IMG/VR virus record: IMGVR_UViG_2778261297_000008
Length of the DNA stretch: 57,427 nucleotides
Direction: 5' to 3' (one strand)
DNA from: a virus
Lineage: Duplodnaviria; Heunggongvirae; Uroviricota; Caudoviricetes
Shown here in pieces: positions 13,596 through 19,519 of this stretch (position 1 is its first letter; each line of letters starts with the position of its first letter). Below the pieces are notes generated by a model. The model was not told the origin of the DNA and made no database searches. It saw nothing but the letters and a program-made list of their open reading frames with translations. A program made the translations under genes and the position numbers.

Positions 13596-14528
13596 TCAGA
13601 TTTCATATTGCTTTAAATACTGACCATGTTCAATTTTAGCACTGATCAAGGCAGTACGCACATCTGTTTCTTTTGCGTAGCCATCTTTTGTGTTAATGTT
13701 TTTTTCACTGATCAGAACTTGATTGAGAAGACTCCTTGAATGAGTATTTTTAGGTTCAGTGACATTAGCTTTACGTAATAAGTGAGGAACTTTTTCTATT
13801 AATTCCTTTATTCCACTTTTTACTTCATCACTGAGATAACCACGGATTAATTTACGTTGCGATGCTCTACCTCTAAGTGATAGTTTTAAATGCGAACCGC
13901 CCATCCCAGCCATCATTTCAATCATACTTTTGGAAAATGAATTCGAAAGGTCATAATCCGTTGCGCTAAAATTACGTGGAGCGGCGAGTGTAATTTCACA
14001 GCTACGTAAAGTGCTTCCTGTTTCAAGTAGTTCTTTTACACTTTCTTTTTTCCAAATTGCCTCAAACGCTACAGGTTTGTTTTCTTCAGAAAAATTGAAT
14101 AAAAGAAATGCTAAATCGGAAACTTTAGGTCCTAAATGATTTTGAGATAAAACAAGAATGTCTTTCTTATAGTAGTAAATAAAATAAGTGCGTTCGACTA
14201 TATATTTTTTATCATCTAACGGAATATTGTGCTCATCCCAATTTTCATCACCAATATAAGGTAAGTGGAAACCATCACGAGAGCATGATAGATAACCAAA
14301 ATAGAACTCCGCCTGTGCGTCTTTTTCTAAGAATACAATCTTTAATTTTTTCTTATCAAACTCAGCGGTATAAGAATTTTGCGAAGGTGTAACAATGGTT
14401 GTATACATGTTGTCAAATGCAAGTTGTGCATTTGATGTAGTTGACTTCGTTCCTGAGGAGCTTTGGAAGAAACCGATACGCATTTTTTTTTGTTTAGTTA
14501 GTGGCGCGGAAGTGGCTGTAGTAGTCAT
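13596..14528 (-). CDS. Uncharacterised 310-aa soluble protein, first gene of the two-gene cassette
   Basis: Long ORF in a visibly AT-rich block with a plausible SD; no motif I can assign (no Walker A, HEPN, PD-(D/E)xK or nucleotidyltransferase signature seen by eye). Confidence 0.75.
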   Translation of the reverse strand: MTTTATSAPLTKQKKMRIGFFQSSSGTKSTTSNAQLAFDNMYTTIVTPSQNSYTAEFDKKKLKIVFLEKDAQAEFYFGYLSCSRDGFHLPYIGDENWDEHNIPLDDKKYIVERTYFIYYYKKDILVLSQNHLGPKVSDLAFLLFNFSEENKPVAFEAIWKKESVKELLETGSTLRSCEITLAAPRNFSATDYDLSNSFSKSMIEMMAGMGGSHLKLSLRGRASQRKLIRGYLSDEVKSGIKELIEKVPHLLRKANVTEPKNTHSRSLLNQVLISEKNINTKDGYAKETDVRTALISAKIEHGQYLKQYEI

Positions 14529-14684
14529 TAAAATTACCCTTTATTATCCTTTTGAATCAATGGGTTGTGATTTGTTAATGATCCTAGGTTCGTTGCATAT
14601 GCATAATCTATCAAAAAAAACTTACGCGGTCCGCATATTCTCGTTTACTGTGTTAAGAGTGGTTACTTCGCCACACAACTTAAA

Positions 14685-14706
14685 CCCGCCGCTGAGCGGT
14701 TTTTTT
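14685..14706 (+). terminator. Weak hairpin plus T7 run; possible tR'-like late-leader terminator
   Basis: CCGC-TGA-GCGG followed by TTTTTTT, upstream of the late region. Confidence 0.3.
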
Positions 14707-14827
14707 GTACCTGTAAACCTTGTGCAGTACAGTAAACACGCTGGTGGTCGTGAATACTGGCTTTTTATCTTGCTGGCTTTTTAGACAAGAGTTATTGGTA
14801 TGTCATGTTAACCAGAAGGGAAAAGAC

Positions 14828-15031
14828 ATGCTAAAACAGCAAGATATGACAGAAACCGCCGCCGCAGTCCTTCATTTCTTACCTGCTGACAAGTGGGTAA
14901 CGCCACGCATGATGACGAGAACTACCGGAGTAAGCGAAGCCAGGTGCCAGTTAATACTGACTCAGTTAGTTCTGGCGGGTCTGGCGAAGGATAACGGCGG
15001 GTACGGGAATAAATTCAGACGCTGCCAGTAA
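14828..15031 (+). CDS. Small hypothetical protein (67 aa, possible winged helix)
   Basis: ATG with SD GAAGGGA; short, no recognisable domain. Confidence 0.35.
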   Translation: MLKQQDMTETAAAVLHFLPADKWVTPRMMTRTTGVSEARCQLILTQLVLAGLAKDNGGYGNKFRRCQ

Positions 15032-15181
15032 TGGCGGTTTCCTGCTGTGAAAATGGGCGGCTGGTGGGTGTTGGTAGCACCTGCCAGCCATTCGCTCATG
15101 CTTACTGGTCACAAGCGAACCACGGCCCACTGCTTTAGCGCAAAAGCAGAGTGAGCCTACCAGAGTTACGCTTACTGATCC

Positions 15182-16234
15182 ATGAAAAATACTGTAAAAA
15201 TAAACAGTGTTGATTTAATCAACGCTGATTGCCTGCATTTTATTCAGTCCCTGCCTGATGATTCCATTGACCTGATTGTTACCGATCCGCCTTACTTCAA
15301 GGTGAAACCTAACGGTTGGGACAATCAGTGGAAAGGGGACGAAGATTACCTTAAGTGGCTGGACCACTGTCTGGCCCAGTTCTGGCGGGTGTTAAAACCT
15401 GCCGGAAGCCTTTACCTGTTCTGTGGGCATCGCCTGGCATCTGATATTGAGATCATGATGCGTGAACGTTTCAACGTGCTTAACCATATCATCTGGGCGA
15501 AGCCGTCCGGACGTTGGAATGGGTGTAATAAAGAAAGTCTGCGCGCATATTTTCCTGCCACAGAGCGCGTTCTGTTTGCTGAACATTACCAGGGGCCATA
15601 TCGCGGCAAAAGTGACGGCTATGCGGCAAAAGAAAGGGAACTCAAACAGCACATAATGGCACCGCTGATATCGTATTTCAGGGATGCTCGTGCCGAACTG
15701 GGTATAACGGCAAAACAAATTGCCGAAGCCACAGGTAAGAAAAATATGGTTTCCCACTGGTTTGGTGCCAGTCAGTGGCAGTTGCCGAATGAGGCTGACT
15801 ATCGGAAGTTACAGGCACTGTTTTCCCGTATAGCGGCAGAGAAGTTTCAGGAACAACAACTGGAACAACCACACCACCAGCTGGTGGCATCTTATGATTC
15901 ACTGAATCGCAAATATTCTGAATTGCTGGATGAGTTTAAATCTCTCCGGCGCTATTTCTCCGTATCAGTCTCCGTGCCTTATACCGATGTCTGGATGCAT
16001 AAACCCGTTCAGTTCTACCCGGGTAAACATCCGTGTGAGAAACCTGCGGATATGCTCCGGCAAATAATCAATGCCAGTAGTCGACCTGGTGATCTGGTTG
16101 CTGATTTTTTTATGGGATCCGGTTCCACAATAAAAGCAGCAATGGCGCTGGGGCGTCGGGCCTTAGGTGTTGAGCTTGAGTCAGAGCGGTTTAACCAGAC
16201 AGTGAAAGAGATAAACGAGCTGGTGGGGAAATAA
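15182..16234 (+). CDS. DNA methyltransferase (N6-adenine or N4-cytosine; DPPY motif), orphan with no visible cognate nuclease
   Basis: 350 aa; DPPY (LIVTDPPYF) and FxGxG (FFMGSGST) motifs. Confidence 0.85.
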   Translation: MKNTVKINSVDLINADCLHFIQSLPDDSIDLIVTDPPYFKVKPNGWDNQWKGDEDYLKWLDHCLAQFWRVLKPAGSLYLFCGHRLASDIEIMMRERFNVLNHIIWAKPSGRWNGCNKESLRAYFPATERVLFAEHYQGPYRGKSDGYAAKERELKQHIMAPLISYFRDARAELGITAKQIAEATGKKNMVSHWFGASQWQLPNEADYRKLQALFSRIAAEKFQEQQLEQPHHQLVASYDSLNRKYSELLDEFKSLRRYFSVSVSVPYTDVWMHKPVQFYPGKHPCEKPADMLRQIINASSRPGDLVADFFMGSGSTIKAAMALGRRALGVELESERFNQTVKEINELVGK

Positions 16235-16237
16235 TCT

Positions 16238-16263
16238 GGTGGCCACGTAGGTGGCCTTTTTAT
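16238..16263 (+). terminator. Intrinsic terminator after the methyltransferase
   Basis: Hairpin GGCCACGTAGGTGGCC followed by TTTTTATTT. Confidence 0.7.
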
Positions 16264-16300
16264 TTCCATTACACAGCACCCGCATCTGCGAGGTGGGGTT

Positions 16301-16516
16301 ATGAAATCCATGGATAAGTTAACAACGGGTGTCGCCTATGGCACCTCAGCAGGTAGTGCCGGGTACTGGTTTTTACAGTTGCTCGATAAAGTCACGCCCT
16401 CACAGTGGGCGGCAATAGGTGTGCTGGGTAGTCTGGTATTTGGCTTGCTGACGTATCTGACAAACCTTTATTTCAAGATTAAAGAAGACAAGCGTAAGGC
16501 TGCACGGGGAGAGTAA
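16301..16516 (+). CDS. S: Phage-21-type pinholin (S21-like), dual-start motif MKSM
   Basis: 71 aa; near-identical to recalled S21 (...[14 protein letters not shown]...[12 protein letters not shown]...[10 protein letters not shown]...RKAARGE); SD GAGGTGGGG. Confidence 0.88.
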
Positions 16517-16520
16517 TTCA

Positions 16521-16865
16521 ATGACTCAAAAATATGAACTGATTGTGAAAGGGATCCGCAATTTTGAGAATAAAGTTACGGTAACTTTAGCGTTACGGGA
16601 CAAAGAACGCTTTGACGGTGAAATTTTTGACCTGGACATCTCGCTGGACCGTGTTGAAGGTGCCGCGCTGGAGTTTTATGAGGCAGCAGCCAGAAGGAGC
16701 ATCAGACAGGTCTTCCTGGATGTTGCTGCCGGGTTATGTGAAGGGGATGAGCTGTCGCCGGAAAAGCGCCCCATAATTTTAGAGGCGCAGAATGTGTGGA
16801 TAACCTACAAAGGAAAGCTACCGGGAAGAATTACTGGTTCTCTGAAGACTCCGCCGAAATGGTAA
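16521..16865 (+). CDS. Hypothetical 114-aa protein inserted between holin and endolysin
   Basis: ATG with SD GGGAGAG 5 bp after the holin stop; no recognisable domain. Confidence 0.5.
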   Translation: MTQKYELIVKGIRNFENKVTVTLALRDKERFDGEIFDLDISLDRVEGAALEFYEAAARRSIRQVFLDVAAGLCEGDELSPEKRPIILEAQNVWITYKGKLPGRITGSLKTPPKW

Positions 16866-17103
16866 TTTCACCAGCATATTTTTCTTCCAGTAATACCGCC
16901 AGCCACTTGAAAGAATTTTGTTGTTGCTGGGACCATTTGGGGTTGAGTGATTCAAGCTGGAGCGATGCCAGTGTTGGTTGCATTTGTTCCTTGGGAATTG
17001 AGAATGCCAGATATGAAAATGCGACAGTAAGGGCATTTACATCATCCCGAAGCTTGGAAATGCAGTCGAGCAACTCCTGTAGAGAAATGGTGCTATTGTC
17101 CAT
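16831..17103 (-). CDS. Hypothetical ~90-aa protein, convergent with and overlapping the 114-aa ORF
   Basis: ATG at 17103 with strong SD GAGAGGA (spacing 7); 3' ends overlap by ~35 bp. Confidence 0.45.
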   Translation of the reverse strand: MDNSTISLQELLDCISKLRDDVNALTVAFSYLAFSIPKEQMQPTLASLQLESLNPKWSQQQQNSFKWLAVLLEEKYAGEITISAESSENQ

Positions 17104-17208
17104 AAACAATCCTCTCTATTGTATTTAACTATTCCTTGCCTGATTCAACAGGCCGGGACAGATAAACATATCCAGGGTTCAGAAACCGATAAATCCTGAT
17201 AAATATCC

Positions 17209-17751
17209 ATGAACGTAAAAATCAGATACGGCCTGTCGGCTGCCGTTCTGGCACTGATTGCCGTCGGTGCGCCTGCGCCTGATATTCTCGACCAGTTTCT
17301 GAATGAAAAAGAAGGTAACCACACAACGGCATACCGCGATGGTTCCGGCATCTGGACCATCTGTCGGGGTGCCACGGTGGTGGATGGAAAACCCGTTTTT
17401 CCCGGTATGAAACTGTCGAAGGAAAAATGCGACCAGGTTAACGCCATTGAACGGGATAAGGCGCTGGCATGGGTGGAGCGCAATATTAAAGTGCCACTGA
17501 CCGAACCACAGAAAGCGGGTATAGCGTCATTTTGTCCCTATAACATTGGCCCCGGTAAGTGTTTCCCGTCGACGTTTTATAAGCGGCTGAATGCCGATGA
17601 TCGTAAGGGGGCATGCGAGGCGATTCGCTGGTGGATAAAAGATGGTGGGCGTGATTGCCGCCTGACAAAAGGGCAGAAGAATGGCTGTTATGGGCAGGTC
17701 GAGCGGCGCGATCAGGAAAGCGCACTGGCGTGCTGGGGGCTGGAGCAATGA
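17209..17751 (+). CDS. R: SAR endolysin (phage-21 R21-like lysozyme with N-terminal signal-anchor-release domain)
   Basis: 180 aa; hydrophobic Gly/Ala-rich N-terminus (LSAAVLALIAVGAPAP) followed by a T4-lysozyme-like region. Confidence 0.85.
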   Translation: MNVKIRYGLSAAVLALIAVGAPAPDILDQFLNEKEGNHTTAYRDGSGIWTICRGATVVDGKPVFPGMKLSKEKCDQVNAIERDKALAWVERNIKVPLTEPQKAGIASFCPYNIGPGKCFPSTFYKRLNADDRKGACEAIRWWIKDGGRDCRLTKGQKNGCYGQVERRDQESALACWGLEQ

Positions 17752-18284
17752 AAATTAATCCGGATCTTATAGGCGTTGTCGTTATTGCTGGCCTTTCGGT
17801 CGCTCTCGTCAAGAGTTGCTCTCACGCCAGTAATCTTCAGAGCGATAACGACGTTCTGCGAAGTGACAACTCTATGCTGGGGCAGGTAATCGCCACCCAG
17901 GCATTCAACTTCAATCGATTCAATCAGGTTGCAGAACATGCCAACAGTCTTAACTCCCTGATCGACACCAGCACCGAAAAAACCGTAATCGAATACCGGG
18001 AGATTCTCCGCCGTGAAAAAACCTGTGATCTGCCTGTTCCTGCTGATATCGCTGGTGGGTTGCTCGAATACACGTACCGTTTACGTGCCAGCGCCATGCA
18101 CACCGATACCGGCAGACCTAATGAAGCCTATGATCGTACCGCTACCACCAGCTCAATGACCTACTGCCAAGCTGTCTTGTGGATTAAGCCGCTACTGGCG
18201 TTGATAGAAAAAGGAAATAATAATTTTTCGAGTATTCGTGAAATTGATGAGTTGCGTTACAGACCATCTGAGCATGGCCAGTAA
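17748..18284 (+). CDS. Rz: Rz-like i-spanin
   Basis: ATG overlaps the R stop; N-terminal TM segment; embedded Rz1-like ORF in the +1 frame supports the call. Confidence 0.7.
   Translation: MKINPDLIGVVVIAGLSVALVKSCSHASNLQSDNDVLRSDNSMLGQVIATQAFNFNRFNQVAEHANSLNSLIDTSTEKTVIEYREILRREKTCDLPVPADIAGGLLEYTYRLRASAMHTDTGRPNEAYDRTATTSSMTYCQAVLWIKPLLALIEKGNNNFSSIREIDELRYRPSEHGQ
18013..18159 (+). CDS. Rz1: Rz1-like o-spanin lipoprotein embedded in Rz (+1 frame), GTG start
   Basis: Translation VKKPVICLFLLISLVGCSNTRTVYVPAPCTPIPADLMKPMIVPLPPAQ: lipobox LVGC then Pro-rich mature peptide. Confidence 0.65.
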   Translation: MKKPVICLFLLISLVGCSNTRTVYVPAPCTPIPADLMKPMIVPLPPAQ

Positions 18285-18452
18285 GGTTGCAGGAAATTTA
18301 AAATCTGGCGATGAAATTTAATATTAGAAATTCATTGCCTAGTGAGATTAATAATGGGCATCCCTTTGTGACGATAAGCTTTAACACATTCACAAAGGGA
18401 TATTTAATATAGGGTGGTTAATTCCCACTTGCTGTGGTGTTTAGGGGGTAAT

Positions 18453-19145
18453 TCAAATCTTATCTAACTCATTATAGGCTTCGATAATAAAAATTCTGAT
18501 TTTAATAAGGCATGATTCAATGAAAGGAATTACTTCATGGTCATTCCCATGGAATCTTATTTTTTTCTCTTCGGTAATGACTATGTTTAAAGGTACACCA
18601 TTACCACTTCTTTGTAATTTCCCATTTTCGAAAGTAAAGTCTTCTAATTTTTTGCCATTGATGTGGTTGTTTTTAAAGAGAATTTTTGCTGAGCTTCCTG
18701 CTGTGATTAAACCAAAACCATCTACGCTCACACTTAGGTCTTTAACAGAACTCTCTTCTCTTAAGGGGATTGGTTGTCTGTGCTTTACTTCATTAGTGAG
18801 ATTACACATCATTTCCAACCAAGATTCGCCAGTGTGATAATCCTGTATAGAAGTAAAAATTTTATATAATGGAGAAGATGATGGTGGGTTTATTTTTAGC
18901 GTCTTTGAGAAAAATTTATCAATAAACTCTCTTTTTCCGTAAGGGAAATATATTTTGGGGCGCTCATCATTACTGCGTGGAGAAATATATTTATCATAGG
19001 TATCATTAGCGAGATACTCTAAGGAACTTCGTAAGTTTTCCAAAATAGCTTTGACTTTTACAGGCTTGATATGCTGTGTCTGTCTCATTATGTCAAGACT
19101 TTCTTCAACTTCTTGCAATAAGTCCAACGAGCCTTCTCTAGACAT
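18453..19145 (-). CDS. Uncharacterised 230-aa protein encoded on the opposite strand between the lysis cassette and cos
   Basis: ATG with SD AAAGGAGA; AT-rich by eye; opposite orientation to flanking late genes; no assignable domain. Confidence 0.7.
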   Translation of the reverse strand: MSREGSLDLLQEVEESLDIMRQTQHIKPVKVKAILENLRSSLEYLANDTYDKYISPRSNDERPKIYFPYGKREFIDKFFSKTLKINPPSSSPLYKIFTSIQDYHTGESWLEMMCNLTNEVKHRQPIPLREESSVKDLSVSVDGFGLITAGSSAKILFKNNHINGKKLEDFTFENGKLQRSGNGVPLNIVITEEKKIRFHGNDHEVIPFIESCLIKIRIFIIEAYNELDKI

Positions 19146-19519
19146 ACAGGTAATTCTCCTTTATGAATTTTCAACATGTTATAACTAATAATATATTTAT
19201 CATATAACTGTATGAATAAATTGTGAGATTAGTAATGCAAGTTTCTATCCATAGTGTTCTCTAAGTACCCGCTTCCATCATGTTGTTACGGACGGTATGG
19301 CTAAAACAAAGCACCTGAAGTTAAACGTTCTGAACTTTATGCTCGTTGAGCATATGAATTATCTGTAACCCGATGCGCTGGTTGTGGTTCACATTGATGG
19401 TCGTAATCAGCAGCGGTGGTGCCTGATGGCATGCAACTTCTTACTTATAAAACTTCGTATGGAATTGTTGCCATAACGAGCCCAGCTTAGCAGTTTTTAA
19501 TGGGTCCTCCCGGCAGTGT

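Follow-up and report, generated by a model that had tools for sequence, protein, structure and literature searches.

Two accessory genes, ydfR and a moron-like gene of PHROG 2411, in the S21-type lysis cassette of an Escherichia coli lambdoid prophage

The window analysed here is a stretch of 57,427 nucleotides (nt), IMG/VR virus record IMGVR_UViG_2778261297_000008, and the locus of interest belongs to the late region of an Escherichia coli lambdoid prophage. Between the pinholin gene S and the signal-anchor-release (SAR) endolysin gene R there are 692 base pairs (bp), which hold two small convergent open reading frames (ORFs). On balance, we favour reading these as two independent accessory genes in an S21-type cassette: ydfR, whose product would be a late modulator of RNase E, and a gene of PHROG 2411, which would be a moron. 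Morons, such as bor and lom of phage lambda, are autonomously expressed genes that lie between conserved phage genes, and possession of their own promoter and terminator is part of the classical definition.

A preliminary description of this DNA had pointed to two convergent ORFs with overlapping 3' ends, each with a Shine-Dalgarno (SD) sequence, within about 690 bp that separate genes contiguous in phage 21-type cassettes. All of these features are present, and the corresponding genes essD and rrrD are directly contiguous in the DLP12 prophage of K-12. The description had further regarded the two ORFs as an inserted gene pair that could be a toxin-antitoxin-like or lysis-timing module, or a moron. 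Both are indeed extra DNA relative to cassettes of the phage 21/DLP12 type, but their separate histories speak against one joint module, and the term moron fits the minus-strand gene, whereas ydfR is a regular, co-oriented gene of the late transcript. These histories emerge from two of the checks that the description had proposed. In a comparison of related cassettes, DLP12 lacks both genes, while PhiR40_1, BP-4795 and the Qin prophage of K-12 have ydfR only; homology searches identify the plus-strand ORF as YdfR/DUF1327 and the minus-strand ORF as a member of PHROG 2411. The features between S and R are as follows (lengths of proteins in amino acids, aa).

16301-16516, plus strand: S, S21-type pinholin/antiholin gene, 71 aa, MKSM dual start (M1/M4)
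16506-16513, plus strand: SD sequence of ydfR, GGGGAGAG, inside the 3' end of S and 7 nt before the ATG
16521-16865, plus strand: ydfR-family gene (DUF1327; PF07041, phrog_406), 114 aa
16831-17103, minus strand: 90-aa gene of PHROG 2411, ATG at 17103 and stop at 16831
16831-16865: overlap of the two 3' ends, 35 bp
16861-17150: insertion cassette with the minus-strand gene, ~290 bp, an indel relative to PhiR40_1 and BP-4795
17116-17110, minus strand: SD sequence GAGAGGA of the minus-strand gene, 6 nt before the ATG
17118-17123, minus strand: -10-like hexamer TACAAT, a candidate promoter element from the alignment of upstream regions
17138-17153: small palindrome GCCTG-N6-CAGGC, read from the sequence, spanning the right cassette junction
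17209-17751, plus strand: R, SAR endolysin gene (R21-type lysozyme with an N-terminal signal-anchor-release segment)

ydfR in the late lysis transcript

The plus-strand ORF matches the Pfam family DUF1327 (PF07041) across residues 1-112 with 145.1 bits (cut-off 25; E 7.6e-43) and phrog_406 over its full length (E 2.6e-67), and an identical sequence carries the RefSeq label 'YdfR family protein'. Members of this family have lengths of 103, 114, 116, 176 or 183 aa and share a common build, in which a conserved N-terminal portion of ~75 residues is followed by a middle part ending in ...SLKTPP and then by a variable end. An AlphaFold 2 (AF2) model of YdfR has three strands and a long helix in residues 5-73 and a low-confidence C-terminus. 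There is no hydrophobic segment (the maximum 19-residue Kyte-Doolittle mean is 0.69), and the protein is predicted to be soluble and cytoplasmic. Neither NCBIfam nor PADLOC gave a match to YdfR, nor did a comparison of its sequence with the PDB, and literature searches on DUF1327 returned a single genomics paper that names it.

In Qin the gene order is essQ-ydfR-rrrQ-rzpQ, and the order S-ydfR-R recurs in PhiR40_1 and BP-4795; 783R2 has the insertion cassette between ydfR and R. Throughout, ydfR occupies a position on the same strand as, and between, a class II (S21-type) holin gene and a lysozyme gene of a lambdoid late operon. The stop codon of S and the start codon of ydfR are 4 nt apart in the window, which makes ydfR part of the late lysis transcript, and it belongs to that transcript in every cassette examined. 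By tblastn, YdfR is also encoded by H-19B, Stx2 phage 86, YYZ-2008 and most Stx1a/Stx2c phages. Of 5426 complete E. coli genomes, 4349 have ydfR DNA, at a total of 8618 places; sequenced phage records include 438 with the S21-type holin, 101 with YdfR and 3 with the 90-aa protein. Thus, ydfR is an insertion relative to phage 21, yet a very common one that is already annotated.

A possible function is suggested by work published in 2026 on the K-12 protein. A two-hybrid screen that used RNase G as the bait recovered residues 1-72 of K-12 YdfR, and YdfR was found to prefer the N-terminal catalytic half of RNase E, of which residues 1-598 co-purify with Strep-YdfR (PMC13232886). The Strep-YdfR preparation carried DNase-resistant nucleic acid, in line with co-purification of RNA, and overproduction changed few transcripts and left growth unimpaired (PMC13232886). 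The same authors compared RNase E binders of the YdfR type with Srd of phage T4 (PMC13232886, citing Qi et al. 2015). These binding data are for the K-12 protein, with which the window protein was compared by sequence only: the two are 82% identical across residues 1-74, a conserved beta-beta-beta-alpha domain that covers the K-12 segment 1-72, so the RNase E-binding surface has probably been retained in the window. If so, YdfR would be made late in infection together with the holin and endolysin, dock on RNase E, and alter the decay or processing of particular transcripts, probably late transcripts of the phage. It would then be a mild and specific modulator, and neither a global inhibitor nor a lysis regulator that acts at the membrane.

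The PHROG 2411 gene and its cassette

The minus-strand ORF matches phrog_2411 from end to end (residues 1-90 of 90, E 2.2e-59), and distant members from other phages match the same family at E 1e-17 to 1e-19. Could it nevertheless be no gene at all, but antisense sequence that happens to be open or a remnant in decay, so that the insert is ydfR plus spacer DNA? In favour of this, searches for a promoter or terminator were negative, some copies are frameshifted (94 aa) or truncated, the literature is silent on the gene, and the window also has an open frame on the plus strand of this DNA (16796-17128), with a similarly low ratio of nonsynonymous to synonymous substitutions (dN/dS). We rejected this plus-strand ORF as a real gene. 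Stops break it in 783R2, A33 and the copies beside iha and on an IncF plasmid (described below), whereas the minus ORF keeps a length of 89-90 aa and a conserved start, and is intact in all homologues, down to 26% identity; the equally low dN/dS of the plus frame follows from third codon positions that coincide with those of the minus ORF. Pairwise dN/dS in the minus frame is 0.19-0.36, indicative of purifying selection. The lysis-cassette and iha copies retain an SD-like GAGGA, length and core motif are unchanged in homologues from other phages and genera at 26-60% identity, and the exact protein is encoded on at least 1000 contigs. The non-gene reading is therefore essentially excluded.

The natural frameshift variants (P0046, P0049, P0051, P0058, P0063) switch to the other minus frame after residue ~40-58 and encode 94 aa. 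They suggest that the N-terminal ~45 residues are constrained, while the C-terminal third appears to be expendable or to be decaying in cryptic prophages.

The 90-aa product is acidic (pI 4.3) and soluble, with a maximum 19-residue Kyte-Doolittle mean of 0.88, and its AF2 model has four helices at a mean predicted local distance difference test (pLDDT) score of 70; as modelled, it would be a small acidic four-helix cytoplasmic protein. The family is small: a profile search of 1.84 billion representative proteins found only ~20 representatives. Several distant members have 81-97 aa and 26-36% identity, with the core ELLxxIxxLRxxVNxLxxAFxYLxFS...FES.N. A fold search against PDB and BFVD gave no match at E <= 0.001, sequence comparisons with Pfam, NCBIfam, PADLOC and PDB were likewise negative, and literature searches with its accessions returned nothing, including no transcript data. 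The most plausible mode of action might be binding to another protein, a suggestion that we make with low confidence. We also considered whether the 90-aa protein derives, by inversion, from a copy of the C-terminal extension of the 176/183-aa YdfR forms, and rejected this, as BLASTP found nothing.

Some related phages have the cassette with this gene, and in others the genes on either side of it are adjacent. In alignments with PhiR40_1 and BP-4795, ~20-45 bp take the place of the window's ~290 bp, with boundaries at ~16861 and ~17150. The guanine-plus-cytosine (GC) content of the cassette is 42%, as compared with 47.5% for ydfR and 54% for R, so its base composition is unlike that of its neighbours, by a modest difference. 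No meaningful flanking repeats surround it; the stem of the palindrome GCCTG-N6-CAGGC is conserved among cassette-bearing loci, and the minus-strand transcript has no notable fold (z -0.73). Of 5426 E. coli genomes, 1221 contain cassette DNA, among them REL606, the BL21-derived Rosetta2-DE3 and CFT073. The junction of ydfR with the cassette is found in 1133 genomes, so that about one quarter of the ydfR-bearing genomes have the cassette; its junction with R is found in 1040, and phage records with the cassette number only 3. The cassette was probably inserted once just behind ydfR and then spread by recombination among lambdoid prophages.

Outside the lysis region, diverged copies of the 90-aa gene (~55-60% aa identity) lie beside iha together with IS2, and on an IncF plasmid beside an autotransporter gene, with no ydfR near either. 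More distant relatives are located on the opposite strand upstream of the terminase genes of a lambdoid phage, and, again on the opposite strand, between the tail genes M and L, where the gene overlaps a 71-aa gene by 7 bp; another is convergent with an unrelated 85-aa gene. In the two phage-borne cases with readable neighbours (terminase, M-L) the gene faces against the late operon. There are also chromosomal relatives, for example between dinI and bssS. This distribution and orientation is typical moron behaviour, and we class the gene, which is annotated as a hypothetical protein, as a moron. The homologue between dinI and bssS sits 1.7 kb downstream of the RNase E gene (L024 72-5279), which is probably plain synteny and not a functional link.

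The overlap of the two 3' ends is best read as a by-product of the insertion junction, not as a designed regulatory overlap. Read on the opposite strand, the end of ydfR (...ITGSLKTPP) supplies the last 10 codons of the 90-aa ORF (...SAESSENQ*); this stretch of ydfR is not part of the insert and is also conserved in phages that have no cassette. The inserted ORF thus continues through the antisense of the ydfR end to the first stop. The tail so acquired is wholly different in the iha copy, the plasmid copy and the distant homologues, is replaced by another frame in the frameshifted 94-aa variants, and is disordered in the model (residues 80-90, pLDDT < 50).

With regard to expression, the minus-strand gene would use its own ribosome-binding site and, as we infer, its own promoter. 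Five aligned lysis-cassette copies share GAGGA, the iha-linked copy has GAGGAG at a shifted position, and on the IncF plasmid the aligned position has no SD sequence. A TTG at 17109 could serve as an alternative start, giving 92 aa. The hexamer TACAAT, 14 nt upstream of the ATG, is conserved, with TATAAT in its place beside iha; its role as a promoter element of the minus gene is only a hypothesis. Upstream of the minus gene, ~75 nt that are common to the R leader are kept even in the iha copy. Being transcribed against the late operon, the gene is most likely expressed from the repressed prophage.

The R leader itself (17160-17208, plus strand) has three GATAAA(T/C) repeats, GATAAACATATCC...GATAAATCCTGATAAATATCC-ATG. 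It is conserved in all S-ydfR-R variants and is also found beside the iha-linked 90-aa copy (L011 2719-2800), where no endolysin gene exists, and may be a regulatory site or promoter region. An Rfam scan of 14000-19500 found nothing.

Coupling of the two genes and lysis timing

Several observations weigh against two independent genes with the roles proposed above. RNase E binding was demonstrated under overproduction and for the K-12 protein, not for the window protein and not during phage growth, and this overproduction altered few transcripts. For the minus gene, no consensus sigma-70 promoter and no terminator were found, and the sole conserved -10-like element is too near the start codon for a normal leader. 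Furthermore, the ydfR junction is present in 1133 genomes and a near-full-length cassette in 1130, so that nearly every E. coli copy is joined to ydfR.

This last point bears on the idea of a coupled pair, in which the 90-aa protein, or its transcript as an antisense RNA, counteracts YdfR or the expression of holin in the lysogen, as a toxin-antitoxin (TA)-like device or safety catch. The genes are convergent with overlapping 3' ends, nearly all full-length cassettes in E. coli abut ydfR, and with no terminator after the minus ORF its transcript would run antisense into ydfR and S; moreover, convergence on a small gene, with overlap, recurs in two distant family members. Against this, about three quarters of the genomes with ydfR have no cassette, as is also true of K-12, H-19B, PhiR40_1 and BP-4795, and the 90-aa family has members in at least five other contexts from which ydfR is absent. 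Where such members have a convergent partner, that partner is not related to YdfR (BLASTP found nothing, and a tail-motif similarity has p ~0.06), and purifying selection on the 90-aa protein implies that it is not just an antisense transcript. The TA-like module envisaged in the preliminary description finds no support. Type II TA genes are co-directional, co-transcribed and obligately co-occurring, but here they are convergent on opposite strands, ydfR is found without its partner and members of the partner's family without ydfR, co-occurrence being one-sided, and neither protein matches TA or defence models in Pfam, NCBIfam or PADLOC. Nor is overproduction of K-12 YdfR reported to impair growth (PMC13232886). 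In view of the near-universal adjacency and the possible antisense read-through, we keep coupling as an improbable but live alternative.

A common C-terminal motif, LKxPPx[YW], in YdfR and the 71-aa partner at the tail locus was considered and set aside as not significant (no BLASTP match, shuffling p ~0.06). The position of the two ends is curious: YdfR finishes in ...ITGSLKTPPKW (16806-16865) and the 71-aa partner in ...IFGDLKKPPSY (L018 5001-5476). More speculatively still, PHROG 2411 genes as recurrent backward inserts in late operons could, through convergent transcription combined with the small acidic product, be a brake on leaky holin and endolysin expression in the lysogen, or a partner of YdfR that tunes late-mRNA decay and lysis timing; we consider this a long shot.

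It is also unlikely that one or both proteins regulate lysis timing directly, as an antiholin or releasin does, through action on the pinholin or the SAR endolysin. Such a role would suit genes that lie inside the lysis cassette, with ydfR tightly packed behind S and, in Qin, overlapping the start of rrrQ by 4 nt, and a genetic screen linking ydfR to envelope integrity has been cited (PMC13232886). However, membrane-acting regulators such as antiholins and SAR-endolysin releasins have a transmembrane or periplasmic-targeting segment, and neither protein has a transmembrane or signal segment (see hydropathy values above). Both genes are wholly absent from phage 21-type cassettes such as that of DLP12, their frequencies in phage records (101 and 3) fall well below that of the holin type (438), many S21 cassettes can do without either, and relatives of the 90-aa gene lie in tail and terminase regions. 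Finally, downstream of the S-ydfR-90-aa block phiSTEC1575-Stx2k has different holins and an M15 peptidase in place of a SAR endolysin, which argues against a specific tie of the block to the SAR endolysin. Two independent accessory genes thus remain our preferred reading.

The lysis region of phiSTEC1575-Stx2k (OQ243220.1, 1781-3799) comprises the pinholin gene, ydfR, the antisense 90-aa gene, two more holin-family genes and an M15 metallopeptidase gene, with an IraM-like anti-adaptor gene on the opposite strand just upstream of S. It looks like a mosaic in which the pinholin is possibly orphaned.

Neighbouring genes and related systems

The pinholin matches PF04971 (E 2e-35) and the holin families phrog_9876 and phrog_20, and an identical sequence is essD in RefSeq. 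The endolysin matches PF00959 (E 1e-23) and phrog_7 (endolysin, E 2e-60), with the N-terminal sequence YGLSAAVLALIAVGAPA. The remaining features of the lysis region are listed below.

15182-16234: DNA methyltransferase gene (N6/N4), directly upstream of S
16241-16256: strong terminator-like hairpin with T-run, ~45 bp before the S start
17748-18284, plus strand: Rz-like i-spanin gene (phrog_214, Rz-like spanin, E 2e-54)
18013-18159: Rz1 lipoprotein ORF with LVGC lipobox, embedded in Rz

As the hairpin precedes S, late transcription must pass through it, presumably by Q antitermination.

Two further ORFs of low GC content flank the region on the minus strand. The first (13596-14528, 310 aa, 35% GC) is situated in the late-region leader upstream of the methyltransferase gene and S; its only match is to DUF6731 (E 3e-11), with none in PADLOC, and it is probably a moron or candidate defence gene. 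The second (18453-19145, 230 aa, 34% GC) lies directly downstream of Rz/Rz1 and has no match in Pfam, NCBIfam or PADLOC. At the equivalent position the closest genome has a 693-bp hypothetical protein gene (WP_000085744.1), and the ORF is a moron-like insert at the classical 'bor' position. In strain 210221272, which is 100% identical to the window over 16250-17260, Rz is split by an element of the IS3 (insertion sequence 3) family (L001 7499-9348), whereas Rz/Rz1 of the window are intact; another locus (L012) has lost most of ydfR and the cassette by deletion. The lysis region thus decays differently between hosts.

The analysis is mainly one of clean-up, in which an apparent convergent pair resolves into the annotated and very common ydfR and an ordinary moron-like passenger. 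It does, however, place a reported RNase E binder, encoded in ~80% of complete E. coli genomes, in the context of a lysis transcript, and leads to the testable idea that temperate lambdoid phages may adjust RNase E activity at lysis. The 90-aa gene encodes a conserved uncharacterised small protein that, through REL606, a BL21-derived strain and CFT073, is amenable to study in standard strains.

Compared with the S21-R21-Rz/Rz1 cassette of phage 21 and DLP12, the dual-start pinholin, the SAR endolysin and the embedded spanin pair are likewise present and intact; S and R are contiguous in DLP12, whereas here two extra genes lie in the interval between them. Like K-12 YdfR, the window protein belongs to DUF1327 and is encoded in the same place between an S21-type holin and a lysozyme in the late operon. 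It differs in length (114 aa, as against 103 aa in K-12) and in its C-terminal part, 'CEGDE...SLKTPPKW', in place of which K-12 YdfR has unrelated sequence. Where ydfR of Qin runs into the start of rrrQ, 343 nt with an antisense gene separate ydfR from R in the window.

If the K-12 data apply, YdfR is also a phage-borne binder of the catalytic half of RNase E, like Srd of T4, which binds the N-terminal half and stimulates decay of host mRNA. Other phage-encoded modulators of RNase E are Dip of phiKZ and gp0.7 of T7. The 90-aa gene, for its part, resembles lambda bor and lom in being present or absent between collinear genes, in its lower GC content, in its orientation opposed to the late operon and in having relatives at other late-operon positions and on non-phage islands. 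It departs from the classical moron in that a promoter and terminator are not demonstrable.

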